A stretch of 42,984 nt of DNA from an uncultured bacterium (lineage in GTDB: Bacteria > Verrucomicrobiota > Verrucomicrobiia > Verrucomicrobiales > DEV007). The stretch spans positions 1-42,984 of the forward strand of contig CAXBMO010000037.1 in assembly GCA_963977015.1 (NCBI GenBank), given 5' to 3'. Positions 4,771-23,197 of this stretch are shown one piece after another. Made by a program: the position numbers and the translations under genes. The notes under the pieces were generated by a model. That model ran no database searches. It saw only the letters and a list, made by a program, of their open reading frames with translations, and had not been told where the DNA came from. Every line of letters starts with the position of its first letter. Positions within the stretch are counted from its first letter, which is position 1.

Positions 4771-5529
4771 ATGCCCAAGATGATCCAGCTGGAGCTGAAA
4801 GAACAGTTTGTTGCCCGGGTTCGCCGCGGTTTTGAGTGGCAAGCCCTGTTCAACCATTTGCCGGAAGTGTGCTTTTTTGCCAAGGACACAGACAGCAGAT
4901 TGATCGCGGCGGACACCTCCGTGGTCGAGCGCCTCGGCCTCAGTGATGAATCTGAACTGATCGGGCGGCCGGACATCGACTTTTTCCCGGAAGAGATCGC
5001 GCGGGGATATCGGGCTGACGATCTGTTGGTGATCAGGAGCGGCAAACCGTTGATTGGCCGCTTGGAGGTGTGGAAGAGCGAAGGCCTGAGGCTGCGGTGG
5101 TGCGTCACCAACAAATACCCCCTGTTTGACGATGCGGGAGATGTCATCGGGATCATGGGGACAACTCAGCCCCGGAGCGGGGAGGGCGCTTCTTTCGTGC
5201 ATTCGCCAAGAATCGCCCGGGCGATCAGTTTCATTGAGGAACACTACGCGGAGCCTGTGCGGATCGAGCCGCTGGCGGAAGAGTTGAACCTGACGTCTCG
5301 TCAGCTCAACCGGTCCTTCCTTCGCGAAGTCGGGGTTTCAGTCCGGGCGTTCCACACCCGAGCCCGGATCCTCGCAGCGGCCAATTGCCTCCTCGAAACC
5401 GACGACCCGGTGAGCGACATTGCCCTGGATACGGGGTTTTGCGACCAGAGCGCGCTTTCCCGGGCATTCCGCAAGCAGATGGGTTGTTCGCCGGGTGAAT
5501 TTCGCCGCCGTTCGCAGACCTATTCCTAG
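4771..5529 (+). CDS. AraC-family transcriptional regulator with N-terminal PAS domain
   Basis: PAS-like FFAKDTDSRLIAA...LIGRPDIDFFP...YRADD; C-terminal AraC HTH with signature IALDTGFCDQSALSRAFRKQMGCSPGEFR. Confidence 0.93.
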   Translation: MPKMIQLELKEQFVARVRRGFEWQALFNHLPEVCFFAKDTDSRLIAADTSVVERLGLSDESELIGRPDIDFFPEEIARGYRADDLLVIRSGKPLIGRLEVWKSEGLRLRWCVTNKYPLFDDAGDVIGIMGTTQPRSGEGASFVHSPRIARAISFIEEHYAEPVRIEPLAEELNLTSRQLNRSFLREVGVSVRAFHTRARILAAANCLLETDDPVSDIALDTGFCDQSALSRAFRKQMGCSPGEFRRRSQTYS

Positions 5530-6295: not shown

Positions 6296-9200
6296 ATGAA
6301 GCAAGAGACCCCGAAGCCCGAAAACCAGAAGAAGCCCGGATTACTGGATCGTATCCTCGGCAAAAGCGGCCCTGATGCGCAGGGGAAACGGACCCTGATG
6401 TTCGAGACTCTGGAGCCGCGCGTTCTTTACTCCGCTGCGCCGGTTGAAGCCGCCCCCGAAGCCGAAGACGCCGGACCGGCTGATACGATCGAAGTGGCCG
6501 CCGCTGCATCCGAGCAAGTCGCGCCGACACCGTCGATGGCCAACGAAGATCCCTCCGCTTTGGTGACGGATGTCAACGGAATGGAATTGGCGGTGTCCGA
6601 GGTGGGGGTGGACAGCGATGTCATTGTTCTGCTGGACGACAACGCAGCGGAGGACGGGGAACAGGCTGCGTTGGCCACGGCGCCTCCGGAGCAAACCGTC
6701 ACCCTCTCCACCGTCGATCTGGAACCGTTGGTGCAGGAGTCGGTCGCGCGCTGGCAAAGCACCGGGCTGACGGACGAGCAGCTAACCGCGTTGATGAACG
6801 CGACCTATCAGATTGTCGATCTCGGCGGCAACTACCTCGGCGCGACCGAGGGGAGCCGGATCTCGATCGACGACGACGCGGCCGGCATTGGCTGGTTTGT
6901 CGATTTGACCCCGGATCAGGACGAGGAGTTCACCCTGGCGGCCGGCGTCGATTCGCAAATGATTGCCAACCTGGACTCGGCCGCGCGGGAGCGGATTGAT
7001 TTGCTGAGTATCCTCATGCATGAGCAGGGACACATTCTGGGGTTGCCGGATGTGAGTGAGGCGCAGCGCGATTTGATGTTTGCCTGGTTTGGAGAGGGGG
7101 AACGCCGTCTCCCGGCCGAAGGGCAGGCTGAAGGATCAGAGCCGGGCAGCCTTGAGGGCGTGCATTATGCCACCGTGCCGGTCTACACGGCCGCGGTCGC
7201 GGATGGGACGATAGATGGATCTGCGCTCACAGTGGTCACCAATTGGGGCGACAACCCAGTTTCCTATGGAGCATGGAGCTATTTTAACAACAACATCACG
7301 TTAAGTCCCAATGCTGACGGGACGATCCTTTTCCGGGGGAATTGGACTGCAACCAGAGCCTTTGGGGTGGCGCTGGATGCCACAGCCTCCGGTTTGGACC
7401 TTCAAAACGGAACTGAATACACCTTAAGATTTGATGTGACCGGGCATACCGGGGCGGCCATTGATGCTGCCGGGGCCTTTGTCCAGCAGGGGGGAGCCGG
7501 GCCTCAAATCGATTTCACGTCCGGCGATACCGGGACCGTCGAACCTACAAGCAACACGGAGTATCTGTTACAGAATTTCGCGCAGTCAGACAGTGTGGCG
7601 ATCACAGGGGACGGTTCCCTGACCATCCCGTTCATCTACGACAGTTCGAACCCCACAGTGGCGATCTTGTTTTCACAGGATGACAACACTAGCGGCACCA
7701 GTGAGTTTTATCTCTCCAATATCCGCATCACCGAGGAGGTGACCCTCAACACGGATCCCTATGTCGTCACCAACAACCCGATCAAGACGGTGGCCAACAC
7801 CGCGGGCAATACCCTGAGAGCCTTTGAGCTCGAGCACAGGGATGACGATACGGCTGCTTCCGGCCTGACCTACACCGTGTCAAACCTGACCGGCGGAGTG
7901 GTGGTGAACCTCAATGGTAGCTCAACCACCACTTTCACTCAGGCTGATCTTAACAATGGCCTCGTGTCCGTGGACGCGGGCTCGGCTTCCGGCAGCTTCG
8001 ATTTCTCGGTCTCTGATGGAGGTGCGAATCCCGCGAGCGGCACCTTTAACGTGACCGTGGAAACCACACCGACCATCGTCTATGTCGATTCCTCTTTCGC
8101 CGGGAGCGGCCAGGTGGACGGCGACCAGGAAGCAGTCGGCAGCCAATCCGCCGTCATCGGAACCAACGCCTTCGATACGATTGCCGCAGCCGTCGGCGCG
8201 TTGGAGACCAGTCAGGACGGGACCATCATCATCAATTCGGGATCCTATGGAGATATTGACCTGCCGGCGCTGAAAACCGCTGCGGGCCATACTGGCAACC
8301 TTTCGCTCGTCTTCGTGGAAGGCGATTCCACCCTGGGTTCGCTCATCACCGGCGCGGGCGACAGCGTGGTGCTGGGCGGGATCGACGCCAATCACCCCAC
8401 GGCGGTCACCTTGATGACCGGAAATGCCGGTGACCAGAACATCGTCGGGGTGATTTCGGGCACGGGTGGCATTACCAAGGTCGGCACTGGCACGCTGACC
8501 TTGAGTGGAGCCAATACCTACACGGGCCAAACCACCGTTTCCGCGGGTGTTCTCCAAATGGGGCACGATGACGCATTCGGCGCAGCTTCGGAGGGGACCA
8601 CCGTGGCAAGCGGCGCGGCTCTGGATCTCAACGGCCATCAAACGTTCGACACGGTGACCGTCAGCGGGCACGGAACGGGAGAAACGGATCGCGGTGCCTT
8701 GTACACCACTGTTTACGGCGGGAACCATGGCCTTCAATCGGTGATTCTGACCGGAGACACTTCGATCGGTAACGGCGGTGGTCTGCGGTTTGATATCAAG
8801 GGCGGAATCACCAGCGACGGCGGTCCATGGGCCCTTACCAAAGTGGGGAACAACTTCATCGGGGTGAGTGGCGCGCCGGAACTGCAGAAGCTGATTATCG
8901 ACAGCGGTGAGTGGGGAATGGCGAGCAACAACGGCTTCAGCAACGTCACGAACCAGGACGTCCAGGTAAATGCCAACGGCGTGCTTGCGATCTATCGGAA
9001 CAAGGATTTTTCGGCGAATATCACCCTGAACGACGGCGGTAAAATCCTGAATAACCAGGGCAACGACGCCAACGACCGCACCACCAACATTAACGGCACC
9101 ATCACACTGGTCGGAAGCGGCAACGAAATCGAGGCGCAGAAGGGAAGTGGCGCCGGGACGGTCTCGATCAACATCAACGCGATCATCAGCGGATCGGGTG

Positions 9201-12200
9201 AGATCGAGAGTATGGGAACCGGAACGGTCACCCTGACAACGCTCAATACCCATACGGGAGAAACCACCGTCAGCGCGGGAACCCTGATTTTGCTGAACGC
9301 GACGGGCACGTCACTTGCCAGTCATCTCAACGTCACCGGCGGAACGGTGAGGCTGGCCGCGGCTGGCCAGTTCGCGAACACCGCATCGGTGAACATCGCC
9401 TCCGCCGGGATCGTGGACATGAACGGGTTTGATGGAACTGTCACCGGGCTCCAATTCGACAGCGGATCGGCGAAAGCCGAGGGGACCTACGGTTCCACCG
9501 GAAGCGCCGCCGTGACTGAGCAAAACGATACCTATTTCGCTGCTGGTTCGACGGGTGTTCTCACCGTGGACGACGTTGTCGCCCCCACTCTGGATTCGAC
9601 GGACATTGTCGATGATGCGGGCGGGGCCGACGTGGCCCCGAATGTGCCGGTGACTTACACCGTGACCTTCAGCGAAGACATCGATCACACGTCGGTGGGC
9701 ACAGGTGATTTCAGCAACGCGGGCACGGCTGCCATTTCGGTCGATTCGGTCGTGGAAAGGGCCACGCCGGGTGTTTTTACCGTGGTGGTGACGGCCTCCA
9801 CCTCGGGCACGCTGCGATTGCAGGTGCCGGTGGGCGCGACCATTAACGATGTGGCGGGCAACGCCTTGGATTCGGATCCGGCAATCGCCGATGACACAAC
9901 CATCAATGTTGTCCCCATCGAAACCACCGTTGCCCTCGTCAACGATCAGATTGTCATCACCGACGTAAACGGAGCCAATTCCGATGACAATCTAACCATT
10001 GTTCAGGGCGGCGGATTCATTACCATCAGTGACGCCGGCTTGACGGTGGGCGCCGGGGCAGGGTTCACGCAGGTGGACAGCAACACGGTGCGAATTGCGG
10101 AAGGTTCGGTAACCAAGGGCATCGTCTTCGACGGCGAGGGAGGAACCGACACCGTGACCATTGGCAGTGATTTCAATCTGGGAAGCGGCCCGCTTAGTCT
10201 TGTGGCGGAAACGGTGAACATTGCCGGAACCATCACCACCAGCGGTGCGGTTTCGCTGACGGCTGACACGCTGGACTTCACCAACACCGCGGACATAATC
10301 TTTGCCCACAAACTCACGGGAACCAACGCCGTGGTTCAGTCCGGAAGCGGAACCACCACGCTGACGTCGAACGACAATGACTACACCGGCGGTACGACCA
10401 TTGCGGCGGGGAATCTCACCATTGGCGACGGCAGCACCGGTTGGATCACGGGTGATGTCGTCAACCACGGCACCCTGACGTTCCAACGCAATGACGATGT
10501 CACCTTTGGTGGTCAGATCAGTGGGACCGGAAACCTCGTCCACGCCGGAATGAACGATAAGGGGAACTGGCAGGGCGGAGCCCGGCTGGAGCTGACCGGC
10601 GATAACAGCGGCTTCACCGGGGATACCTCCCTGGGGGCGGATTCGGAGATTCTCATCTCCCACGCCAATGCTCTGGGATCAGACGGGACGATTAGTTTTA
10701 CGGGAGACGATTCCGTCATCCGCGTGGCGGCGGGAATCACCACCAACTCCGGAGTTGATCTGTCTTATGATGGTGCCGGTTCACGCAAACAGTTTATTGT
10801 GGAGGGTGCCGGAACGGCAACCTGGGCAGGTGGTATTTCCACGACTAGTACTAACGGCGGTGACGGATGGAGAACTCGATTCACCGCAAACAGTGGTCAG
10901 ATCCTGAATATTACCGGAACCATCTCTGACGGTGCGGGAGCCGGACAGAAGACCGGCTATGGATTGACTGGGAGTGGATTGATCGTCATTGCCGGAGCCG
11001 GAGTGAATAGCTCATCAGGATTGATCTATACCTATTCAGGATCCACCTCTCAGTTGACCAAAGATAGTGCTCTCGGAACCAGCGTGATCAACAATATAGG
11101 TGGCTTCCTGGAGTTGGCTGATGGCGTGACCATTGCCAATGACATCACGGTGGACGAACGGATAAACAGTGACTTTGGGATCTCGGTCGCGGACGGAAAC
11201 AGCGCCACCTATACAGGAAATGTAACCCTTCAGGAATATGCCGAGACCTTCGATTTTAACGTGGGTACTGGGGCGGCCTTGACCGTCTCAGGCGAGATCA
11301 GTGGGGCTCTCTATGACAGCCCCCACGATAGTCCGGATGGTGGATTGCTTCAGGTGACAGGAATCCAGAAAACCGGGGAAGGAACCGCCATTCTGAGTGG
11401 CGCGAATACCTATACCGGTGCAACTGCGGTGAATGCCGGGATTCTCCAGGTGAACGGCGATCAGTCGGCCGCGACTGGAGCGTTGACGATTGCGCCTGGG
11501 GCGACGCTTGGCGGAACCGGAATCGTCGGTGGAGCCGTGACCTCGACCGAAGGCACGATCGACCCCGGGGTGACCACGGGCGATCTCGGCGTCGGCAATC
11601 TCTCGTTGACCGGCACGTCGACCTACAAAGTGCAACTTGCCGGGACAACCCCGGGCGAAGGAGCGAACACGCACGATCAACTCGGTGTGACCGGCACGGT
11701 TGATGTCACCGGCGCGAAGTTGGAGATTACCCTCGGATTCACACCTTCGGTCAACGACCAGTTCGTGATTATCGACAATGACGACGTCGATCCCGTCACG
11801 GGTGAATTTGCCGGCTTGGCGGACAAGTCAGAGTTTCTCTCGGGGAACCATTGGTTCCGGATCAATTATGGCCCCGACACGGGGAACAACGACGTTGTCC
11901 TGACTTATCTGGGCGAGAACGCTGCTCCGGAAGGAACGGACCGGGGGATTGTGATCAACGAAGACACGTCGCATACGTTCAGTTCGGCGGACTTCGGTTT
12001 CACCGATGCCAACAGCGGCGACGCGCTGAAAGCCGTCCGGATCGACACGCAAACGCTGACGGCCGGATCGACCCTGGAACTGAGCAACTTGGCCGTGATC
12101 GATGGGCAAGTCATCGCCGCGCCGGAGATCGGCAACCTCGTCTACACCCCCGCTCCGAACTCCAATGGAACCGCGCTGGCCAGTTTCACCTTCAGCGTGC

Positions 12201-15200
12201 AGGACAGCGCGGACGTTTTTGATGCAACGCCGAACACGATCACGATCGACGTGGTCAGCGTGGGCGATGCTCCTGCCGGAGCGGACAAGACCCTGACGAT
12301 GAATCAGGATTCCACGTTAACGCTTACCGCGGCCGACTTTGGATTCTCGGATCCGGACGATTCACCCGCTGACAACTTCGCCGGGGTAACCATCACGGCG
12401 CTTCCCGCCGCAGGAACGCTAAAGCTCGACGGAGTGGCGGTTTCGGCCGGGGATTTTGTTACCGCTGCCGATGTCAACGCCAGCAAGCTGACTTTTGATC
12501 CGGCTACCGGAGAGCACGGCGATGGTTACTCCAGCTTTACCTTCCAGATTCAGGACGACGGAGGTTATGGCGAGACGAGCGGGATTGTCCCGATCACCGG
12601 TCTCACCACCGCAGAGGGGTTTGTCTTCGGTGATCGAAATCAGACCGGCACCCAGACGCTGACTTCCTTCACCGACGCCAGTGGCACCTATACCAGCCTA
12701 TCCTTCGCGACTGCGCTGAGCGAGGCGACCGGCAGCACGATTCTTTATGGAAGCGGCAGCACGGCGCCGGGAACGACCAGCGAAGCTCTCACCGATGACC
12801 GGCTCGATACTGGAGCTCTTTCGGTGAGTGACAGTGTCGTTTTGCAATTCGGAGAAACCTTGGAATCCACGGACAAAATTTTTGCCTTTTTCAACTACAG
12901 CGAAGCCCCGGCCACGATTCAAGCATACAGCGGGACCACTCCGCTCGGCACTCCGACCAATGTGGGGAGCAACTACCAGTTTGTCGGGTCGATGAATCTG
13001 GAACGAGTCGGGAATTCGGTCCTCAACAACCGCGAACTTTATGGATTCGCGATTGAAGCTGGCGATCTCGACCTGGGAGGCGCCGATGTTTCCACCATCA
13101 CGGGCATCCGATTGGTCGGACCGGCCAATGAAGATTACAACCTGATTGGTTTCGGTTCGGTTGCCCCGAGCGAAAACCAGGATGCAACGCCGAACACGAT
13201 CACGATTGACGTTGATGCAACCGGCCCAAGTAACGTCGCGTTCACGCTCGACACCACCAGCACGACCGAAGGCACGTCCATCTCCCTGAACGGCAGCTTC
13301 ACCAAAGGTTTGAGCGACTCTCATGTCGTCACGATCTACTGGGGCGATGGAACGAGCGACGTCCAGACGGTCACCGGTGGGGCGGAGGTTTTTGCCGGTT
13401 CGCATGCCTACGGGCGCGACGGGGAGTTTGAGGTAAGCGTGGCGGTGAGCGATTCGACCCTGGCCAGCGGCCTGGTCGGACTGTGGAATTTCGACGATGG
13501 AGCCGTTACCGATCAGTCTACCGTTGGGAACACCGGCTCGGGAGGAACGATTGCCGCCGGGGACACACCGTTTGGCGATGCTGGTCAGGCGTTCACCGAT
13601 GGCGTGGTCACGATTTCCAATTCCCCGGAGTTGGAAGCGATGGACGACCAAATGACAATCGGGTTCTGGATCAAAGCGGATCAGGGGGCTACCGATTGGA
13701 GCCGAATCGCGGTGAAAGCGGGCGGGGGCAGCGGTTTCCACATCGGGAAATACTCGAATACTGACGACATCAACATTCGGGTTGATACCGATGGACAGGG
13801 AAATCAGAACAAGTTGGTGGGCACTGACAATACCTTGGACGGAACCTGGCATCACGTCGCCTTTGTGCTGGATAACGGAAACGCCCGCCAATATCTCGAC
13901 GGCGTGCTGATTGAGTCCGGAACCTATAATCACGGCAGCGGCTTTGGGAACTCCGGCAGTCTCATCCTGGGCCACGCCGGTCTGGAAGGCGCGATGGATG
14001 ATGTGGCGGTGTGGAATCGGATGCTGACGGACGCGGAAATCACGCAGCTCGGCCAGACAACCGGGACGGGCGCTGCTCGCGAGAGCGCCAACGGGCCACT
14101 CGTCATCCAAGCCACTACTTCAGCCGCGCAGACCGTGCAAGTGAGTGACGCCGCGCCCGTGATCACCGATCTGACGGTGACCCAGGACAACGCGACCGAT
14201 GCCACCTTGACCGCGACGTTTACCGATCCGGGGACGCTCGATCAGCACAAGGCCGTGATCGACTGGGGCGATGGAACCGCGTTGGAGGAAGTCGACATCA
14301 CGATCGGGGACCGCTCGCTGACACTGACCCACACCTATGCCTCGCCGGGAACGCACAATATTTCGCTCCTCATACTGGACCGGTTGGGAGACGACGTGGT
14401 GGCGCTCTACACCTTCGACGGCGCGAACCTCGGGGAAGACACTTCCGGAAACAGCAACAACGGCACGGTGGGATCCGGGATTACCGCGAGCGTGGACACA
14501 CCGGATGCGTTGAGCGGCAGTTCCTTCGCGGGATCGGGTGCAAGTGGTGCCAACGGCTATATCCAAGTGGCCAGTTCCGCGTCTCTCGAAGCGTCGGACG
14601 ACGAGTTGACCGTGGCCTTCTGGCTCAAAGCGGACGCAGGCGACAACGCCGATTGGTTCCGCCTTATGCTGAAAGGCTCGGAGAACACGGGAGTCGAGAG
14701 TTGGATCATCAATCGCAATTCCAGCGCAAATGACATTCTCTTCCGAACCGACACGGTGGGAACGGGGGGAACCGGAAACCAAAACAAACACGGCGGTACC
14801 GGGCCGGTGCTGGACGGGGAGTGGCACCACGTTGCCTACGTTCTGAACAGTGGTTCCACCAAAGAATACGTCGATGGCCAACTGGTGAGCTCGACGACCT
14901 ATCCCCATGGTGAGGGTCTTTCCAACACATTGCCGCTCTTTATCGGCGGCGGGGGAACCAATAACCTGGTTGGAAACCTCGATGACCTCATCATTTACAG
15001 CCGGGCGCTGACCGACGTGGGGATTGCTTCTCTCTCGGCGAATGCGGCCGCGCAATACGTCAATGCTCGCGATACGGAAACCGCAACGCTGACCTTCAAC
15101 TTCGCTCCGACCGACATCACCCTGAGCAACTCCGCTATCGCCGAAAACACCGCCGCTGATACCGTGGTCGGTACGCTGACGGCAACCGACGCAAATTCCG

Positions 15201-18200
15201 GCGACACTCACACCTTTGCCCTCGCCACGGGAGACGGTACCAACGATGCGGACAACGGCAAGTTCACCCTTGTCAATGGCAACGAGTTGCAGCTCAACGA
15301 ATCGCCCGACTTCGAGACCCAGGGCAGCTATCGTGTTTATGTTGAGACGACCGACGCGGCGGGCGCCAAGTTTGCCAAAGGATTCACCATCATGGTGTCC
15401 GACGCGGCGGCGAGCTTCACCATCGCCGCGGACGACGCGGACAAGGCAGAAGGCGACGCCGGAACGACGAATTTCACCTTCGCGGTGACACGCGGCGGAG
15501 ACACGACCGGGGTGGCGACGGTGGAATACGCGGTAACCAGTGTCCTCGCCGATGCGAATGACTTCGGCGGAAGCTTGCCGGGCGGCACCTTGACCTTCGC
15601 CGATGGCGAATTGGTGAAAACCCTGAACATCGCCGTATCCGGCGACCCGGCTGTGGAACTTGACGAGCCATTCACCGTGACGTTGAGCGACACCGCGATG
15701 GATGACACGATCACCATTGGTTCGCCCAATTCCGCCGATGGTACGATTCGCGACGATGATGCCCTTCCTGCGTCGGTCACGATTGAGGATGTCGTCGTCA
15801 GTGAAGACGGCACCTCGGCAACGTTCACCGCAACCCTGGATCAGCAGGTCGCCGGTGGATTTACCGTGGAAGTCTCGACTGCGGACTCGAGCGCTGAGGC
15901 GGGAAGCGACTACACCGCGCTCAGCAGTCACGTTCTCACCTTCGCGGGCAATGCCGGAGAAAAGCAGACTTTCATCGTGGCGATCGCCAACGACACCGAG
16001 ATCGAAGGGGATGAAACCTTCCAGATTTCGATGGCGAACGCGAGCAACGCGGCGGTGATCATCACCGATACCGCGACCGGTACCATTGACGACAATGATA
16101 CCTCGGAAAACGCGAACCTGGTGCTGACGATTCCCGGCAGCGGCAACGGAACCGCCACGTTGGGTTCGGCGACGAACGATGGCGACAGCGCAACGATTGC
16201 GTTGAACACTGCCACGGTGACGCAGGCTGGTGACGACGTCACCTTCAATCCAGGCACGGACTTCGACTTCCTCAAGCCGGGCGATTCGGCGACGGTGAAT
16301 GTGGCTTACACCCTGGCTCCGGCGGGGAATCTCAGGGTGGATTTTGGAACCTCAGCGACATCCCTGGTACAAGCGGATTACCAGGCATACACCGCAACTC
16401 ACGAACAAGGCGCCACTTTTACAACCCAGAGCTTCAGTGGCTTTGGCACGACGATTAGTGTGACTCCAACCTGGAGTGCAGATGCGGTCGATGCGGCTAA
16501 GCAAATGTTTGGAAACCGGGGCGATACGATCACCGATGATGCCTACGACAACCTGTTGATTGACTGGATTGGTACAGACACTCGCAATGGATCCAGTAGC
16601 GATGACCCGGACCCGCTCACCATTACGCTGAGCGGCGTTCCTGCCGGCACCTACTCCTGGCTTTCGTACCATCACGATTCGAACAACCAGAAGGGAACGT
16701 TCGATGTAGCGGTGAACGACGCAAGTGGGAGCAACGTCACCCAGGGTGTCGAGAGTACCAAATTCAACGCGGATGGCGTCACCACCTTGGCGGCGGCTGG
16801 AAAATTCGAGACCACCATTACATCAAATGGAGTAGACGACATCACCATCGAATTCGATCTGCAAACCGGCACCTGGTTTGTGATGAACTCGTTCGCGATG
16901 GAAGCTGTGACGGAGACCTTGACCATCACTGTGAAGGGCGAAAATGACGCGCCAGTGACGGTCGCGGACACGGATTCCGTGACGGAAACCGCAGATGCCG
17001 TCTCCAACCCGCAAGCGGCTGGAAACGTCCTGGCCAACGACAGTGATCCGGAAGGCGACACCCTTGCGGTCCTGAATCCAGGCACCCAGGTTGGGAACTA
17101 CGGGACTCTGCAACTGCAAAGCGACGGCTCCTATACTTATACCCTCAATGATGCGAACGCACAGGTCGACGGGTTGAGTGCGGGGGAAGACCACAAGGAC
17201 ACGTTTACCTATCAAGTGAGCGAAGGCGCCAGCGCGCAGTGGAATTTCACCGGCGGCGTCTCCGGGGCAACGACCCAGGGGACCGGCTACTCGGTTTCCG
17301 CAATTTCCAATGAAGGCGGGCTAACGGTTTTCAATCCGAACGCGAGCGACGGGTATCCGAGCGCTCCGGTGCTCCACGTCAACCCGCCGAACGGTTCGGC
17401 GAGCCTGGATGCCGCAGTCACGGCGAACAGCTATTTTGAATTCACCGTTACGCCTGATTCAACGGTCAATCTGGAGAGCTTGGGTTTCGATGTCGCCAGA
17501 GGGGGGGGCTCGAGCCCGCGCGGCTGGGGCATACGCTCAAGTCTCGACAACTATACCACGACGATCGACACAGCGGATGTCCCGACGGTTCGAACGAACT
17601 TCACCAGCGTCGCTGTGGATCTTTCGGGCCCGGATTACCAGAATCTCTCTTCCCCGGTTACGTTCCGGGTTTACGTCTACGCGCCGACATCCGGCAATTC
17701 CCTGGAATTCGACAATATCACGCTCAACACCAAGGCTGCGGAATCAACTCTGGAGATCACGATCGACGGTAGCAATGACGCGCCGGTCGTCGCTGCCACG
17801 GCGGACACCAACCTGAACGAGACAACCGATACCTCGGACATCACCGGAACCATCACGGTGAACTTCAGCGACGTCGATCTGACGGACAACGGGCACGCCG
17901 CCACCATCACCGCGGCCAGCGCCAGCGGCGTCACCGGCGGATTGGCCCTGAATGAAGCGGCGTTGCGCGGGCTCATCTCGGTCGACTCGACGTCAAAGAA
18001 CGGCGGCGAGTCCATCGGCAGCGCGGCGCTCAGCTTTGCGGCGGCTTCGTCGGCCTTTGATTACCTCGCCGCGGGCGAGCAGGTCACCATCACCTACACC
18101 GTCCAGGTGAACGACGGCGATGTTGCGGCGACCAACACCTTCAACGTCGTCATCAACGGCACCAATGACGGTCCTGACATTGCCCAAACCGGAACGCTCA

Positions 18201-19882
18201 CCGTCACGATGAGCGAAGACGGCTTGCCCACGGCGTTTGTCGCACCGGCCATTTCGGCGACCGATGTGGATGGTGACACTCTCACCTGGTCGGTCGCCAG
18301 TGGAGGCGACGCGAGTCACGGTACGCTTTCGGTCTCCGGCAGCGGTGCCGTCCCGACCATCAGCTATGTGCCCGATGCCGACTTCAGCGGCAGCGACCGC
18401 TTCACCGTCCAGGTTTCCGATGGGACGCTGACCGACACCATCGTGGTCGATGTGACCGTCGATCCAGTCGCCGGCACTGGCGTTCTGGCGCTCGCCTCGC
18501 CAGCGATCGACCCCACGGTCGGAGTGACCGAAGATCTCGGGCTCAGTTTCACTGCGGGCGATCCCACTGATCCCTCCGAAGTAGTCACCGTCACCATCAC
18601 CGGTATCCCCGCTGGAAGCGGGATCGCTTTCGCCGACCCGACCCTGTTCACTGGGGCCGAGCAAGACGGCGGCCCGGTGGCGAGCGGGGATGTCTCCGAT
18701 GGGACGCCGCTGGTGTTGACCCAGGATCAGGCGCGATTCGCCACGGCCACGGATCTCGGAGTTTCGCTCGAGTTCGGCGCCGCTGTCAGCGACCTCAACC
18801 TCGACATTACCTGGCGGGCCGTCGATGGCGCGAGTTCGCAGAATGGGACGCTGAGCCTGACCGCGAACGCGACGGTGCCGCCCAGCTCAGGCGGTCAGGC
18901 GCCTGCCCGGCAGCAAACGATAGTGGTGGTCGGGAATACGCCCACGGGAACCGTGACCGGCACCCAGAAAGTGGCCGAAGAACTGGCCCCAGCCGACCTA
19001 GTGGACGACGCCGTCGTGGCCCTGAACGAGATCGTTTCGCTGTTCAATGTTTTCCAAAGCAACTCGGCGAATTTCGGCTCCGGGGGAAGCTTCGTTGGGC
19101 GGCTGGCGGCCACGCCGCAGATCGTCGTTTCGAGCATCAGTCCGCTCGTCGCAGCTGACGGAACCCAGCAGAGCGGAGGGGTGGAGCTGACTTTTGCCGG
19201 GATCGATTCGGGCGGCCAGAGCACCTCCGTCCAGGGGCGGTTCAATCCGCTCTCCGGAGGGAGCGGTGGATTCGTCTTCCAGAACCAGGCCGGTCAATCC
19301 CTGACCATCGCCGAAGTCTACTATGCCCTCTGGCGGCCCAGCCTCGACGGTGAGCTGGACATTTACCGAAGCGTCTTCGGTGGTGTGGAAGGCGACGAAG
19401 ATGAAAACGGGAGCTTCGTTCCCGGGCCCACAGCTGACGTCACAGGGGGCGAGGGCCTCAATGTGGCCGCTGTGGAGAAAGCCGATCTCCCGCCGGAACT
19501 GCTCCGGTTGCTAAACGCGACCTCAGATTCCTCGCCGACACCGATCTTTGCGGGCGCCGAAGTGGATGCGGTTTCCGGCGCGGCAATCCCGGTTTTGGCC
19601 GGGGTCGGTCAGCCCAACGAACGGTTGGCCGTGGTCGTTTCCAGATCCGGTGAAAATGCGGAAACTCGGGAAGTGGATGTCGATGTATCCGGAAACTGGA
19701 CTTTGCCGCTCGACGCGACCACCCCGATGGATGGCGTCATTCTCGTTCAAGTCGGCGGACAAGCGTTCGAGCCCATCGACTTGGCCAGCATTCAGGATGC
19801 CCTCAACCAGGAAGTAATTGAAGGGCGCGAATGCGCCTATGTCGGTTACTCCGTGTCCCCCCTTGCTCCAAATTTGGGGTAA
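6296..19882 (+). CDS. Giant (4528 aa) LEPR-XLL surface/adhesin-like protein: metzincin-like motif, autotransporter-associated beta-strand repeats, cadherin-like, PKD, 2x LamG, 2x Calx-beta, VCBS and Ig-like repeats
   Basis: N-terminal FETLEPRVLYSA; HEQGHILGLPD; repeats such as KVGTGTLTLSGANTYTG and KTGEGTAILSGANTYTG; cadherin-like FSSADFGFTD and APTDITLSNSAIAEN; PKD IYWGDG/IDWGDG; LamG DGTWHHVAFV/DGEWHHVAYV; Calx-beta EGDAGTTNFTFAVTR..E.DE.F.V.LS; VCBS GNVLANDSDPEGD..YGTLQLQSDGSYTYTLND. Confidence 0.92.
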   Translation: MKQETPKPENQKKPGLLDRILGKSGPDAQGKRTLMFETLEPRVLYSAAPVEAAPEAEDAGPADTIEVAAAASEQVAPTPSMANEDPSALVTDVNGMELAVSEVGVDSDVIVLLDDNAAEDGEQAALATAPPEQTVTLSTVDLEPLVQESVARWQSTGLTDEQLTALMNATYQIVDLGGNYLGATEGSRISIDDDAAGIGWFVDLTPDQDEEFTLAAGVDSQMIANLDSAARERIDLLSILMHEQGHILGLPDVSEAQRDLMFAWFGEGERRLPAEGQAEGSEPGSLEGVHYATVPVYTAAVADGTIDGSALTVVTNWGDNPVSYGAWSYFNNNITLSPNADGTILFRGNWTATRAFGVALDATASGLDLQNGTEYTLRFDVTGHTGAAIDAAGAFVQQGGAGPQIDFTSGDTGTVEPTSNTEYLLQNFAQSDSVAITGDGSLTIPFIYDSSNPTVAILFSQDDNTSGTSEFYLSNIRITEEVTLNTDPYVVTNNPIKTVANTAGNTLRAFELEHRDDDTAASGLTYTVSNLTGGVVVNLNGSSTTTFTQADLNNGLVSVDAGSASGSFDFSVSDGGANPASGTFNVTVETTPTIVYVDSSFAGSGQVDGDQEAVGSQSAVIGTNAFDTIAAAVGALETSQDGTIIINSGSYGDIDLPALKTAAGHTGNLSLVFVEGDSTLGSLITGAGDSVVLGGIDANHPTAVTLMTGNAGDQNIVGVISGTGGITKVGTGTLTLSGANTYTGQTTVSAGVLQMGHDDAFGAASEGTTVASGAALDLNGHQTFDTVTVSGHGTGETDRGALYTTVYGGNHGLQSVILTGDTSIGNGGGLRFDIKGGITSDGGPWALTKVGNNFIGVSGAPELQKLIIDSGEWGMASNNGFSNVTNQDVQVNANGVLAIYRNKDFSANITLNDGGKILNNQGNDANDRTTNINGTITLVGSGNEIEAQKGSGAGTVSININAIISGSGEIESMGTGTVTLTTLNTHTGETTVSAGTLILLNATGTSLASHLNVTGGTVRLAAAGQFANTASVNIASAGIVDMNGFDGTVTGLQFDSGSAKAEGTYGSTGSAAVTEQNDTYFAAGSTGVLTVDDVVAPTLDSTDIVDDAGGADVAPNVPVTYTVTFSEDIDHTSVGTGDFSNAGTAAISVDSVVERATPGVFTVVVTASTSGTLRLQVPVGATINDVAGNALDSDPAIADDTTINVVPIETTVALVNDQIVITDVNGANSDDNLTIVQGGGFITISDAGLTVGAGAGFTQVDSNTVRIAEGSVTKGIVFDGEGGTDTVTIGSDFNLGSGPLSLVAETVNIAGTITTSGAVSLTADTLDFTNTADIIFAHKLTGTNAVVQSGSGTTTLTSNDNDYTGGTTIAAGNLTIGDGSTGWITGDVVNHGTLTFQRNDDVTFGGQISGTGNLVHAGMNDKGNWQGGARLELTGDNSGFTGDTSLGADSEILISHANALGSDGTISFTGDDSVIRVAAGITTNSGVDLSYDGAGSRKQFIVEGAGTATWAGGISTTSTNGGDGWRTRFTANSGQILNITGTISDGAGAGQKTGYGLTGSGLIVIAGAGVNSSSGLIYTYSGSTSQLTKDSALGTSVINNIGGFLELADGVTIANDITVDERINSDFGISVADGNSATYTGNVTLQEYAETFDFNVGTGAALTVSGEISGALYDSPHDSPDGGLLQVTGIQKTGEGTAILSGANTYTGATAVNAGILQVNGDQSAATGALTIAPGATLGGTGIVGGAVTSTEGTIDPGVTTGDLGVGNLSLTGTSTYKVQLAGTTPGEGANTHDQLGVTGTVDVTGAKLEITLGFTPSVNDQFVIIDNDDVDPVTGEFAGLADKSEFLSGNHWFRINYGPDTGNNDVVLTYLGENAAPEGTDRGIVINEDTSHTFSSADFGFTDANSGDALKAVRIDTQTLTAGSTLELSNLAVIDGQVIAAPEIGNLVYTPAPNSNGTALASFTFSVQDSADVFDATPNTITIDVVSVGDAPAGADKTLTMNQDSTLTLTAADFGFSDPDDSPADNFAGVTITALPAAGTLKLDGVAVSAGDFVTAADVNASKLTFDPATGEHGDGYSSFTFQIQDDGGYGETSGIVPITGLTTAEGFVFGDRNQTGTQTLTSFTDASGTYTSLSFATALSEATGSTILYGSGSTAPGTTSEALTDDRLDTGALSVSDSVVLQFGETLESTDKIFAFFNYSEAPATIQAYSGTTPLGTPTNVGSNYQFVGSMNLERVGNSVLNNRELYGFAIEAGDLDLGGADVSTITGIRLVGPANEDYNLIGFGSVAPSENQDATPNTITIDVDATGPSNVAFTLDTTSTTEGTSISLNGSFTKGLSDSHVVTIYWGDGTSDVQTVTGGAEVFAGSHAYGRDGEFEVSVAVSDSTLASGLVGLWNFDDGAVTDQSTVGNTGSGGTIAAGDTPFGDAGQAFTDGVVTISNSPELEAMDDQMTIGFWIKADQGATDWSRIAVKAGGGSGFHIGKYSNTDDINIRVDTDGQGNQNKLVGTDNTLDGTWHHVAFVLDNGNARQYLDGVLIESGTYNHGSGFGNSGSLILGHAGLEGAMDDVAVWNRMLTDAEITQLGQTTGTGAARESANGPLVIQATTSAAQTVQVSDAAPVITDLTVTQDNATDATLTATFTDPGTLDQHKAVIDWGDGTALEEVDITIGDRSLTLTHTYASPGTHNISLLILDRLGDDVVALYTFDGANLGEDTSGNSNNGTVGSGITASVDTPDALSGSSFAGSGASGANGYIQVASSASLEASDDELTVAFWLKADAGDNADWFRLMLKGSENTGVESWIINRNSSANDILFRTDTVGTGGTGNQNKHGGTGPVLDGEWHHVAYVLNSGSTKEYVDGQLVSSTTYPHGEGLSNTLPLFIGGGGTNNLVGNLDDLIIYSRALTDVGIASLSANAAAQYVNARDTETATLTFNFAPTDITLSNSAIAENTAADTVVGTLTATDANSGDTHTFALATGDGTNDADNGKFTLVNGNELQLNESPDFETQGSYRVYVETTDAAGAKFAKGFTIMVSDAAASFTIAADDADKAEGDAGTTNFTFAVTRGGDTTGVATVEYAVTSVLADANDFGGSLPGGTLTFADGELVKTLNIAVSGDPAVELDEPFTVTLSDTAMDDTITIGSPNSADGTIRDDDALPASVTIEDVVVSEDGTSATFTATLDQQVAGGFTVEVSTADSSAEAGSDYTALSSHVLTFAGNAGEKQTFIVAIANDTEIEGDETFQISMANASNAAVIITDTATGTIDDNDTSENANLVLTIPGSGNGTATLGSATNDGDSATIALNTATVTQAGDDVTFNPGTDFDFLKPGDSATVNVAYTLAPAGNLRVDFGTSATSLVQADYQAYTATHEQGATFTTQSFSGFGTTISVTPTWSADAVDAAKQMFGNRGDTITDDAYDNLLIDWIGTDTRNGSSSDDPDPLTITLSGVPAGTYSWLSYHHDSNNQKGTFDVAVNDASGSNVTQGVESTKFNADGVTTLAAAGKFETTITSNGVDDITIEFDLQTGTWFVMNSFAMEAVTETLTITVKGENDAPVTVADTDSVTETADAVSNPQAAGNVLANDSDPEGDTLAVLNPGTQVGNYGTLQLQSDGSYTYTLNDANAQVDGLSAGEDHKDTFTYQVSEGASAQWNFTGGVSGATTQGTGYSVSAISNEGGLTVFNPNASDGYPSAPVLHVNPPNGSASLDAAVTANSYFEFTVTPDSTVNLESLGFDVARGGGSSPRGWGIRSSLDNYTTTIDTADVPTVRTNFTSVAVDLSGPDYQNLSSPVTFRVYVYAPTSGNSLEFDNITLNTKAAESTLEITIDGSNDAPVVAATADTNLNETTDTSDITGTITVNFSDVDLTDNGHAATITAASASGVTGGLALNEAALRGLISVDSTSKNGGESIGSAALSFAAASSAFDYLAAGEQVTITYTVQVNDGDVAATNTFNVVINGTNDGPDIAQTGTLTVTMSEDGLPTAFVAPAISATDVDGDTLTWSVASGGDASHGTLSVSGSGAVPTISYVPDADFSGSDRFTVQVSDGTLTDTIVVDVTVDPVAGTGVLALASPAIDPTVGVTEDLGLSFTAGDPTDPSEVVTVTITGIPAGSGIAFADPTLFTGAEQDGGPVASGDVSDGTPLVLTQDQARFATATDLGVSLEFGAAVSDLNLDITWRAVDGASSQNGTLSLTANATVPPSSGGQAPARQQTIVVVGNTPTGTVTGTQKVAEELAPADLVDDAVVALNEIVSLFNVFQSNSANFGSGGSFVGRLAATPQIVVSSISPLVAADGTQQSGGVELTFAGIDSGGQSTSVQGRFNPLSGGSGGFVFQNQAGQSLTIAEVYYALWRPSLDGELDIYRSVFGGVEGDEDENGSFVPGPTADVTGGEGLNVAAVEKADLPPELLRLLNATSDSSPTPIFAGAEVDAVSGAAIPVLAGVGQPNERLAVVVSRSGENAETREVDVDVSGNWTLPLDATTPMDGVILVQVGGQAFEPIDLASIQDALNQEVIEGRECAYVGYSVSPLAPNLG
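12221..13206 (+). repeat. 26-bp exact direct repeat GATGCAACGCCGAACACGATCACGAT (12221-12246 and 13181-13206) within the giant gene
   Basis: Read directly from the sequence; both copies encode DATPNTITI(DV), the last strand of two consecutive cadherin-like repeats. Confidence 0.9.
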
Positions 19883-19984: not shown

Positions 19985-20049
19985 GATTTTTGAAGAACTC
20001 GTGAGTGGGGCGATTGCATCTTCTTTTTGTCTGTGCCCAAGTGGTAACC

Positions 20050-22440
20050 ATGACCATTCGTTTCCTTTGTTGTTTTCTGTTGCTGGCCGGAACTGCGTTG
20101 TCCCAAGTTTCCCGGCCCTGGGATTCCGAAGAGAAGTGGGGGGCGGCAATTGCGGGATTCGAGAAGAAGGATCGTCAACAGGCGCCGGCAAAGGACTCGA
20201 TTCTCTTTGTTGGCAGTTCGAGCATCAGGATGTGGAAGCTGGAAGAGTCGTGGCCGGACCGATCCACGATCAATCGCGGTTTCGGCGGGTCGACGATTGC
20301 CGATTCGATCCATTTTTTTGACCGGATCATCGCCCCCTACAAACCGAAGGCGATCGTCGTCTATGCCGGAGACAATGATATTTCCAAAGGGCTTTCCGTT
20401 GATCAAGTCGTTGAGGATTACGAAACGCTGATTGGCCTTGTGGACAAGAAACTGCCGGGAACGCCGGTCATTTATGTCGCGATCAAACCCAGCCTTAGCC
20501 GTTGGAACATGTGGCCCACGATGAAAGCGGCGAATGACAAGATCGCGGAGTTTTGTGCCAAAAACGACCACCTCTTCTTTGCTGATATCGCCAAACCGAT
20601 GTTGGCAAATGCGAAAGGAACGCCGCGGCCCGATTGGTTTGCCGGGGATGGACTCCACTTGAATGGCGCGGGATACAAGGGCTGGAAAGCGGTGGTCGAT
20701 AGGCAGATTCGCCTCGCGCTGAATGAGCCAACGCAACCCAATGTGATCGTGATTTTGACCGACGACCAAGGCTGGGGCGATGTCAGCCTCAACGGAAATA
20801 AGAACCTCAACACGCCCAATATCGACTCGCTGGCCCGGGAGGGCGCCAGTTTCGAGCGGTTCTATGTTTGCCCGGTCTGTTCACCGACGCGGGCCGAGTT
20901 CCTCACGGGACGTTACCATCCTCGGGGAGGGGTGTATTCGACATCCGCCGGTGGCGAGCGCCTCGATCTCGACGAGCGGACCATCGCCGACATCTTTCAG
21001 CAGGCCGACTATGCGACGGGGGCCTTTGGGAAATGGCACAACGGCATGCAATACCCTTATCATCCCAACGGGCGCGGGTTTGACGCGTTCTACGGTTTTT
21101 GCTCAGGACATTGGGGAGACTACTTCAGCCCGATGCTGGAGCATAACGGTGAGGTTGTGCAGGGGGAAGGCTTTGTGATCGATGACTTCACGGATCAGGC
21201 CATGAAGTTCATTGAATCGAGCGGTGATCAACCCTTCTTCGTCTATCTTCCCTACAACACCCCGCATTCTCCGATGCAGGTGCCCGACGAGTATTGGGAG
21301 CGCTTCAAGGACAAGGAGCTGACGATGCATCATTTCTCCAACAAAGAGAACGACCTGCATCTCCGCGCCGCCCTTGCCATGTGCGAGAACATCGACTGGA
21401 ATGTGGGAAGGATCCTCAAGAAGCTCGACCAACTTGGCATCGCCGAGGACACGATCATTGCTTACTTTCACGACAACGGGCCGAACGGCGTGCGTTGGAA
21501 TGGCGGTTTCAAAGGTCGAAAAGGATCGACGGACGAAGGTGGGGTTCGTTCTCCGCTACTCTTGCGCTGGAAGGGCACGATCCCGGCTGGGAAAGTTGTT
21601 CCGCAAATGGGCGCGGCGATCGATCTTCTCCCCACCTTGACCGATCTTGCCGGAGTCACGACCCCGACCGACCGTCCTCTGGATGGCATGAGTCTCAAAC
21701 CCGTGATTCTTGGTGAACCCAAGGACTGGGGAGACCGGATTGTGTTCACCCATTGGAAAACCCGCATCAGCCTTCGCACAGAGCGGTTCTGCCTCGATGA
21801 GAAAGGAAATCTTTTCGACCTGAGCAAGGATCCCGGTCAAAAGAACGACGTGGCTGGTGAATTTCCCGATCTCGCGGCAACCCTGCGCAATGCTGCCGAA
21901 CTTTGGCGCAAGGACCTTCTTCCCGGGTTGGAAGATGACACTCGCCCCTTCGTCATTGGGCACCCGGGTTCGGCGATCACGCATGTCCCGGCCCGCGACG
22001 GGATTGCCCATGGCGGGATCAAACGTTCCAACCGCTTTCCCAACGACTCCTTCTTCCAAAATTGGACCAGCACGGATGGCAAAATCACCTGGACGGCCGA
22101 AGTCGGTGCGACAGCCGATTACGAAGTCGAGCTCCATTACACCTGCCCCGCCGGCTCGACCGGTTCGACGCTTGAACTCAGCTTTAACGAGTCAACCCTC
22201 ACCGGGAATGTCTCGGAAGCGCACGATTCCCCCCTTCTTGGCGCGAAAGACGATCGCTCACCGCGAATGGAGTCCTACACCAAGGATTGGCACCGCATGA
22301 AGCTCGGCACGATTCGGTTGGAGAAAGGAAAGGGAGAATTGACGCTACGAGCGTTGAAGGTTCCGAAAGGCGAAGTCATGGACTTTCGCCTCATGGTTCT
22401 AAGGCGCGTTGCCGATGTCGACGTTGCCCTTGTCCATTAG
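20050..22440 (+). CDS. Secreted SGNH/GDSL esterase - S1 sulfatase fusion with C-terminal beta-sandwich (CBM-like) domain
   Basis: Signal peptide [22 protein letters not shown] blocks [25 protein letters not shown]; then [30 protein letters not shown]-terminal galactose-binding-like WTAEV...YEVELHY domain. Confidence 0.9.
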
Positions 22441-22465: not shown

Positions 22466-23197
22466 TCAGTGTGAACCGTCTTTGGCTGACCGAAGGAGCC
22501 GTTGAAGCTGGGCCGGAAAGGTATCGCCTTCTGAGGTGCCTGCCCCATGCATGCTTGAGCCATGGGTGATGCTGTCTCCAAAGCAGACAAGCCTTTCAGG
22601 GTGAAGTTGGTGCGTGACGATTGCCTTGTGAACCAAGCTGGCGAGAAGCCGGTATCCTTCGGCGGTTGGATGAACACCATCCTTCGATCCGCTGTTTTGG
22701 GGATTGCGAATGACACTTTCCGTTCCGAGATGAACCTGCCCGGTTTCGGTAAGCCAGGAATGGAAATCAACGAAGGGGATTTTTTCGTCATGGCAGAATT
22801 GCTTGAGGGCCGTTGCCGTTGATCTGAGGCGCTCTTCCGGAGGTTGGTCGCCGTAGGCTTTCACCTCATGCCGGGTCAACAGGAGGGAGGTAATACATGG
22901 TGGAGGAGAAATGAGAATGACCGTTGCTCCTCCTTCTTGAATCCGCTGAACGAGCGTTTGCTGGTTTGCCAGATAGTCTGGGAGAGTCACCAGCTTCTTC
23001 GAGTTGATTCGATCATTGGTCCCAGCCAGCACAACAACGACGTCAGGCTGGAGGGCCAGGACATCGCCATCAAGTCGCTTGAGAAGATCGCGCGTTGAGT
23101 TTCCGGGGACTCCTTCGTTGAAGACGTCGATCGCTGGACTTGGAACAATTGCCGCAAACAGAAGAATGGTGATGAGAAATGGGGTTTGGAAATGCAT
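22466..23197 (-). CDS. Secreted SGNH/GDSL hydrolase with circularly permuted block order
   Basis: Signal peptide, then block II (VFNEGVPGNS), block III (LAGTND), block V (DGVHP), and finally block I (LVCFGDSIT) near the C-terminus. Confidence 0.88.
   Translation of the reverse strand: MHFQTPFLITILLFAAIVPSPAIDVFNEGVPGNSTRDLLKRLDGDVLALQPDVVVVLAGTNDRINSKKLVTLPDYLANQQTLVQRIQEGGATVILISPPPCITSLLLTRHEVKAYGDQPPEERLRSTATALKQFCHDEKIPFVDFHSWLTETGQVHLGTESVIRNPQNSGSKDGVHPTAEGYRLLASLVHKAIVTHQLHPERLVCFGDSITHGSSMHGAGTSEGDTFPAQLQRLLRSAKDGSH

Follow-up and report, generated by a model that had tools for sequence, protein, structure and literature searches.

The DNA analysed here, called the window below, is a stretch of 42,984 nucleotides from an uncultured bacterium of the Verrucomicrobiales (NCBI GenBank assembly GCA_963977015.1, contig CAXBMO010000037.1). 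The subject of this report is a protein of 4,528 residues encoded by a single open reading frame (ORF) at window positions 6296–19882 of the forward strand, the strand on which all parts of the protein described below lie. We consider it probable that this protein is a giant fibre in which five autonomous domains are nested ahead of the last strand of immunoglobulin (Ig)-like stalk repeats. For repeats 1 and 5, nesting is well supported by predicted structures in which the scaffold fold is discontinuous, and for the PKD repeats 2 and 3 it is reasonably supported by profile matches, by the comparison of related modules and by a weak pass in a complex-prediction test.

In the arrangement that we propose, the giant fibre would probably be exposed at the cell surface, and its distal stalk would be built of Ig-like repeats of the cadherin-like, PKD and VCBS/Big_9 kinds. 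In five of these repeats, the chain would exit the beta-sandwich after the penultimate (F) strand, form a complete autonomous beta-sandwich domain of 170–230 residues, and then come back to complete the repeat with its last (G) strand, from which a linker leads on to the next one. The stalk would remain continuous, with the five domains presumably budding outward from it. The payload set would comprise two LamG domains and three jelly rolls that are either similar to carbohydrate-binding modules (CBMs) or unresolved, and its likely role would be to provide multivalent attachment, with glycans or other ligands on surfaces as targets.

A first-pass annotation of this DNA, made from the letters alone, had described five split repeats with inserts of 170–230 residues, and every one of the 12 strings that it quoted was found at its coordinates in the translation of the single ORF. 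It had also pointed to uninterrupted repeats with a short turn as internal controls, and these are present. One of them, a cadherin-like repeat (11918–12253, aa 1875–1986), matches the Cadherin_5 profile end to end (positions 2–97 of 98; 30.7 bits, cut-off 26.5) and lies directly ahead of split repeat 1. The latter consists of a cadherin-like N-part with the strands up to F (12254–12565, aa 1987–2090; Cadherin_3 profile 7–93 of 106), insert 1 (12566–13180, aa 2091–2295), which was modelled as a weakly resolved beta-sandwich, and a post-insert final strand (13181–13213, aa 2296–2306). The final strand, DATPNTITIDV, is present twice in the protein, at aa 1976–1986 in the control and at aa 2296–2306 after insert 1. 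When the control and split repeat 1 were aligned globally, a single long gap corresponded to the insert, and the identical final strand realigned behind it. In a contig from the same genus (G001:C19), eight uninterrupted repeats have the F-strand and final-strand motifs of the window with a turn of about 10 residues between them; in the window, 205 residues separate the same two motifs, indicating that the split pattern exceeds chance. MAFFT, unaided, aligned these uninterrupted repeats across the 205-residue insert 1.

The interruption is also seen in profile searches. A hidden Markov model (HMM) scan for interrupted repeats, suggested in the first-pass annotation, gave scaffold Pfam matches that halt exactly at the insert, 9–13 profile positions ahead of the model's C-terminal end, in four of the five split repeats; these were Cadherin_3 in split 1, PKD_4 in splits 2 and 3, and Big_9 in split 5. 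The N-part of split 4 gave no match in the Pfam scan. For the PKD domain (PF18911/PF00801), both PKD_4 matches lack the final 12–13 profile positions. In split repeat 2, the PKD N-part (13214–13453, aa 2307–2386) matches PKD_4 at positions 10–72 of 85 with 19 bits, not reaching the cut-off of 27, and is followed by insert 2, a LamG or concanavalin A-like domain (13454–14116, aa 2387–2607), and by the post-insert final strand (14117–14149, aa 2608–2618). In split repeat 3, the PKD N-part (14150–14380, aa 2619–2695) matches PKD_4 at positions 2–73 of 85 with 28.9 bits (cut-off 27), and is followed by the LamG domain of insert 3 (14381–15070, aa 2696–2925) and by its final strand (15071–15100, aa 2926–2935). 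Laminin_G_3 (PF13385, gathering score 27.6 bits) was matched almost end to end by both inserts and exceeded by both, at profile positions 4–150 of 151 for insert 2 (E 1.3e-25, 90.8 bits) and 2–147 of 151 for insert 3 (E 3.7e-24, 86.0 bits).

Split repeat 4 starts with a short VCBS-like N-part (16103–16321, aa 3270–3342), for which five strands were predicted with a predicted local distance difference test (pLDDT) score of 65–80. It continues with insert 4, a CBM-like jelly roll (16322–16909, aa 3343–3538), and a post-insert strand with an NDAP linker (16910–16954, aa 3539–3553). Split repeat 5 comprises a VCBS/Big_9 N-part (16955–17227, aa 3554–3644; Big_9 profile 5–80 of 89, 39.3 bits), insert 5, also a CBM-like jelly roll (17228–17737, aa 3645–3814), and a final strand with an NDAP linker (17738–17785, aa 3815–3830). 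Behind it stands an uninterrupted VCBS-like control (17786–18175, aa 3831–3960), whose short last hairpin was modelled as strands E660–669 and E676–685; most of this domain has a pLDDT below 50.

Structures were predicted with AlphaFold2 and compared with a library of 48,161 PDB representatives using VIA-align. Model B (aa 3270–3960) had a mean pLDDT of 75; inserts 4 and 5 were both confident, and the post-insert strands of repeats 4 and 5 were predicted as E270–279 and E546–555. The nine aligned stand-alone homologues of insert 5 were left out of its alignment, since MAFFT mixed the insert-4 and insert-5 families. The repeat 5 scaffold aligned with 9y9w_A, the peptide-binding domain (PBD) and split domain of FrhA (Z 12.1, root-mean-square deviation (rmsd) 2.5, 99 aligned residues, 31% identity, model residues 284..561), and with 5k8g_A of MpIBP (Z 11.7, rmsd 3.5, 104 aligned residues, 29% identity, model residues 283..563). 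As the N-part of repeat 5 has 92 residues and the aligned range reaches the post-insert strand, the predicted scaffold reproduces a known split domain in discontinuous form. A phmmer search of the repeat-5 module against PDB sequences returned no matches at E ≤ 0.01.

Model A (aa 1987–2320) had a mean pLDDT of 66, with values of 85–94 in the N-part and about 85 in the post-insert strand (E314–321). Its alignment was made without 17 stand-alone insert-1 homologues, the PEP-CTERM tails of which were aligned onto the post-insert strand, and as a consequence insert 1 was poorly resolved. Model A aligned with 7ml7_B, a contiguous CSPG-type repeat, over model residues 1..322 (Z 9.6, rmsd 3.6, 120 aligned residues of the 138-residue chain). 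Among the 50 VIA rows, 31 extend from the N-part to residues 319–333, where the post-insert strand lies, and the remaining 19 fall within insert 1 with weak CBM-like or galectin-like similarity (Z 5.6–6.7).

PKD repeat 3 was studied as a complex of two chains in ESMFold2, the first being the PKD N-part with LamG3 (307 residues) and the second the post-insert strand with the next cadherin domain (111 residues). The complex scored 0.36, compared to 0.02 for the best of three controls, with a contact agreement of at least 92% between runs and a partner pLDDT of at least 85; the verdict was 'weak support'. In the calibration of this test, 58 of the 80 solved complexes reached the pass mark, as did 2 of the 110 mismatched pairs; at scores ≤0.60, the passes were 7 of the 80 solved complexes and both of those mismatches. 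These counts are approximate here because a custom alignment was used.

The five inserts of 170–230 residues are autonomous domains, because the LamG profiles are full-length in inserts 2 and 3, stand-alone homologues were found for inserts 1, 4 and 5, and the models of inserts 4 and 5 are confident. When insert 1 was searched against 1.84 billion representatives, 26 matches were obtained at E ≤ 1e-3, insert 1 itself counted. All 17 of the small relatives that were aligned have a PEP-CTERM tail, as judged by eye. TIGR02595 scored above its cut-off of 16 in two stand-alone proteins (P0055, 26.4 bits; P0018, 23.6 bits) and gave no match at E ≤ 0.01 in the third one scanned (P0003). A search for relatives with the insert-1 family alignment mostly retrieved PEP-CTERM tails, with five places covering the insert-1 domain itself, and a closer insert-1 alignment gave 293 pattern stretches and no confirmed relatives in metagenome contigs. 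The ESM Atlas held no model of insert 1. One of the relatives (L064, in G001:C22, locus positions 1501–2052) has an insert-1-like domain inside an apparent beta-helix repeat region of a 10,326-residue ORF; the insert-1 family may therefore also be nested in non-Ig scaffolds.

The insert 4 query retrieved six proteins, five of which cover the insert in a layout of signal peptide, domain and tail, and one of which carries PF07589. In the loci of relatives, the insert 4 domain may stand alone, lie at the N-terminal end of a larger protein, or be nested. Phylum-wide, the family was found in 7 of 401 genomes. Its Pfam scan gave a sub-threshold match to DUF4382 (E 6.7e-4). Of 2,737 candidates for the insert 5 module query, 16 short proteins matched at E ≤ 1e-5. 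Nine were aligned; in these, a signal peptide is followed by the domain and, in eight, by a PEP-CTERM-like tail, with MYXO-CTERM tails also represented among the small relatives. The seven left unaligned either matched in the VCBS part alone or were longer proteins containing LamG. MAFFT repeatedly co-aligned the families of inserts 4 and 5, and both are CBM-like jelly rolls by VIA-align. The two families may be distant relatives.

The comparison with CBM and lectin folds proposed in the first-pass annotation was made with VIA-align for the three inserts concerned. Insert 5 aligned with 2w5f_A (Z 12.5, rmsd 2.6, 133 aligned residues) and 2xom_A (Z 12.4, rmsd 3.0, 136 aligned residues), and insert 4 with 6d50_A (Z 12.1, rmsd 3.2, 143 aligned residues) and 2o14_A (Z 11.6, rmsd 2.9, 134 aligned residues), whereas for insert 1 the similarity was weak (Z 6–6.7, in a low-confidence model). 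The class considered was that of jelly-roll CBMs, such as CBM22, CBM61, CBM4 and CBM6; at the fold level, insert 5 resembles many CBMs at Z 10–12.5. A reading in which the nesting is real and the payloads do not bind ligands, serving instead for spacing or stiffening, for self-association or flocculation, or as concanavalin A-like enzymes of the glucanase type, would gain from the fact that a binding site was not identified in the payloads and from the Pfam description, which places Laminin_G_3 within the lectin/glucanase superfamily. A relative of insert 1, P0055, weakly resembles the flocculation-associated PEP-CTERM protein PepA as well (NF033554, E 2e-4, 21.3 bits, below the cut-off of 80). 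We regard this reading as rather unlikely, given the likeness of both inserts 4 and 5 to many CBMs in the above Z range and given that RTX adhesins have domains budding from their split domains for which binding to fucosylated glycans or to peptides was observed (PMC12077191, PMC10865825, PMC12970687; the sources on RTX adhesins cited in this report were available in part, and statements on them hold for those parts). The sulfatase genes beside the giant gene would suit a glycan-centred lifestyle, as context only.

Whether the post-insert strand belongs to the repeat ahead of it bears on a second alternative, an ordinary tandem in which each repeat is already whole where its insert begins, the inserts follow as the next beads, and the downstream strand starts the following domain. 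Some family definitions do put that strand at the domain start, as the Cadherin_4 Pfam model begins at the strand and NDAP motif (aa 3541–3615, profile 2–71 of 71), and repeat 4 offers no direct evidence for either arrangement. This alternative is very unlikely in view of the scaffold profiles that end early at the insert in four of the five repeats, the contiguous single-domain templates that span the insert in the models of repeats 1 and 5, and the PKD following repeat 1, which matches its own profile from near the start. The strand is, moreover, conserved although the downstream domain varies. What comes after the unit of cadherin-like repeat, insert 1 and strand is PKD in the window, a Calx-beta-like domain in G002 (L022) and, in P0054, a further Ig-like domain. 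Units of PKD, LamG and strand occur in three copies on contig C3 of the window's own genome and also in G002, G005 and G017, again with differing downstream domains, and the strand after insert 3 is conserved after LamG in seven related modules. These varied neighbours behind a conserved strand indicate that the strand goes with its module rather than with whichever domain comes next.

An HMM of the PKD N-part, matched by split repeat 2 at E 1.1e-24, gave five strong matches among the 17,983 ORFs of the genome, with LamG directly after all five, indicating that this PKD subtype occurs in the genome only in split form. In 127 uninterrupted PKD relatives from other phyla, the F strand leads into a short turn of acidic and Gly residues, after which come the last strand and, at its end, a linker of the NVAP type. 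An HMM of this hairpin and last strand reached its maximum in the giant protein directly after LamG2 (aa 2607–2629, 5.1 bits, independent E-value 0.0021), which, at the level of sequence, lends weak backing to repeat 2 only. The best PKD match of the repeat 3 N-part among PDB sequences was 4xed_A (chain residues 22–78 of 99), at a weak E of 0.14. Among named loci, those nearest to the PKD-LamG module belong to metagenome-assembled genomes of Verrucomicrobiales, and the same holds for the closest full-module relatives.

In the insert 1, 4 and 5 families, homology ends ahead of the post-insert strand, and the borders of the stand-alone family are those of the insert. A last alternative, that the strand is part of a longer payload and the upstream repeat a naturally shortened sandwich, has in its favour that the last payload strand nearly abuts the post-insert strand in the models (E263–268/E270–279; E534–543/E546–555), and is nevertheless highly improbable, as in stand-alone members of all three families the PEP-CTERM tail comes directly after the domain, the LamG profile needs no such strand to be complete, and the strand of repeat 1 is letter-identical to that of the uninterrupted control.

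Several results weigh against the nested arrangement or limit it. For repeat 4, we only infer it, from sequence logic and predicted secondary structure alone, and the VIA list of model B contains no row bearing on this repeat. Accordingly, the claim of the first-pass annotation that all five payloads sit in the last hairpin held for repeats 1 and 5 in the models and for PKD repeats 2 and 3 by profile and comparison, and was not confirmed by the model for repeat 4. VIA ranges give the first and last aligned residue only. Both model alignments were shallow, with 27 rows for model B and 14 for model A, and the first half of insert 1 had a pLDDT below 50 in model A. The complex test of PKD repeat 3 gave weak support and an output without contacts. 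The top score of the G-strand HMM was low (5.1 bits), the same HMM also matched ordinary last strands (aa 572–595, 3537–3558 and others), and the strand after LamG3 was not among the 18 matches listed for the giant protein. Finally, inserts 1, 4 and 5 had no significant match in Pfam and none in NCBIfam.

The nested arrangement was further examined in a homologue from the same genus (L034, on G002:C103), in which a stretch inside a 6,321-residue frame matches window positions 16103–18175. Identity was 58% in the N-part of repeat 4 and 70% over strand 4 and the N-part of repeat 5, compared to 23% in insert 4 and 54–65% in insert 5. This homologue carries a second repeat-5-like split module. In the window's genome, two scaffold types host nested insert-5-like domains, and other giants have such domains un-nested near their N-termini. 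We infer from these sequence comparisons that payloads may be exchangeable or fast-evolving at fixed junctions. The idea of a reusable cassette put forward in the first-pass annotation is thus supported in part, by the 23%-identical payload between flanks of 58–70% identity and by the two scaffold types that host insert-5-like domains.

The novelty of this layout had been overrated, as the same principle has been published under the name of 'split domains' for RTX adhesins (PMC12077191, PMC10865825, PMC12970687, bioRxiv 10.1101/2025.09.30.679566). These adhesins project ligand-binding domains off the fibre axis from split domains (PMC12077191; PMC10865825), and MpIBP has in its region III a stalk shaped like a Y, the branches of which bind ligands (PMC5550230). 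In FrhA of Vibrio cholerae, the cut follows the first strand in each of the two split domains, in an order of 12 residues, domain and 106 residues (PMC10865825; PMC12970687), which corresponds to residues 1127–1138, the PBD at 1139–1333 and residues 1334–1439 (PMC12970687). In a survey of RTX adhesins, the domain emerges after the first strand or just ahead of the last two, up to six CBMs are found per adhesin, and the CBMs of isoforms are 28% identical (bioRxiv 10.1101/2025.09.30.679566). CBM-like payloads are the commonest type (AhLap, PMC12077191; PMC10865825; bioRxiv 10.1101/2025.09.30.679566).

The likeness of the window protein to FrhA and to MpIBP of Marinomonas primoryensis lies in a discontinuous Ig-like stalk domain that carries a budding beta-sandwich, which in those two proteins is ligand-binding and about 195 residues long; the payload of those proteins is the PBD, whereas that of repeat 5 is a CBM-like jelly roll. 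FrhA is cut after the first strand and the window protein before the last one, and where the last two strands follow the insert in one type of the RTX survey, a single strand does so here. RTX adhesins, like the window protein, have several budding domains per protein, each from a split extender, and payloads diverge within one architecture in both, with 28% identity between RTX isoforms and 23% between insert 4 of the window and that of G002. For RTX adhesins, a description therefore exists already of the principle, of the multiplicity and of how payloads diverge, within the parts of the sources noted above. RTX adhesins of the LapA/MpIBP/FrhA type end in a C-terminal RTX nonapeptide beta-roll (Pfam HemolysinCabind) with a type I secretion signal, whereas no RTX repeat family was among the 13 Pfam families found when the whole giant protein was scanned at E ≤ 0.1. 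Their scaffolds are BIg domains, whereas those of the window are also PKD and cadherin-like, and among the window payloads, unlike theirs, are LamG domains and members of families that also occur in PEP-CTERM proteins. The N-terminus, which is the place of the retention module in RTX adhesins, carries an LEPRVLYSA motif in the window protein. What differs here is thus the absence of RTX repeats from the host, the phylum, the PKD and cadherin-like scaffolds, the LamG and PEP-CTERM-family payloads, and the fact that only one strand follows the cut.

Small exosortase-sorted PEP-CTERM surface proteins consist of a single globular domain homologous to inserts 1, 4 and 5; the inserts, in comparison, have no signal peptide or tail and are embedded in the stalk repeats of the giant. 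No PEP-CTERM sorting signal (TIGR02595 or PF07589) was found in the window inserts or at the C-terminus of the giant protein. A binding domain set within a stalk beta-sandwich is also known from Gram-positive tip pilins (RrgA, GBS104) and from integrin beta, where an I-like domain lies in the hybrid domain; these differ from the window protein in their families and organisms and in the covalent pilus context. In a full-text literature search, no paper among the matches listed joined split domains to Verrucomicrobia, Planctomycetes or PEP-CTERM, and none described PKD-LamG nesting. The available part of PMC4452313 holds nothing on giant proteins.

Ahead of its stalk, the giant protein has the LEPRVLYSA motif at aa 39–47 (6410–6436), a weak metalloprotease-like region and a PATR beta-helix region. 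The metalloprotease-like region is a weak Peptidase_M10 (matrixin) match with an HExxH motif at 6914–7093 (aa 207–266), under the cut-off (E 3.8e-4). Overall, the Pfam content of the protein comprises this matrixin-like region, Cadherin_3, PATR beta-helix repeats, two Laminin_G_3 and PKD_4, together with Cadherin, Calx-beta, Big_9 and Cadherin_4 repeats. The genome contains 50 ORFs of at least 1,500 residues, up to a maximum of 12,571. The motif LE[PA]R[ILV]L[YF][SD][AG] is present in 13 of these 50, including all of the 10 largest, and lies within approximately the first 90 residues. A GDI[FY]G.IID-type motif was found near the C-terminus of 8 of the 50 ORFs and is absent from the giant window protein. 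On contig C3 of the genome, four giant ORFs of 4,997 to 8,560 residues lie in tandem (231730–314212), and those of 4,997, 6,811 and 6,416 residues carry more PKD–LamG–strand and VCBS–payload–strand modules. The giant gene of the window is flanked (242–1867, 20005–22440, 22466–23197 and 4771–5529) by genes for two sulfatases, one of them fused with a GDSL esterase, for a separate GDSL esterase and for an AraC/PAS regulator.

The nested arrangement, if correct, would broaden the split-domain principle of proteobacterial RTX adhesins by a non-RTX giant from a different phylum, by PKD and cadherin-like repeats as scaffolds, and by a cut placed ahead of the last strand. It would also provide a rule for annotation, in which a stalk profile ending about 10 positions early, with a strand-linker motif 170–230 residues further on, marks a nested payload; such a rule may help to find candidate binding domains among the numerous giant ORFs that lack annotation in genomes of this kind. 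That the payloads are linked to small PEP-CTERM proteins provides an evolutionary lead. As a tentative extension, it is possible that in the giants of Verrucomicrobiota, and perhaps more widely in the Planctomycetes–Verrucomicrobia–Chlamydiae (PVC) group, the last hairpin of Ig-like repeats is a general docking port that recruits and exchanges domains of PEP-CTERM proteins, so that modules may circulate between free proteins and fibres and related species may differ by payload swaps.

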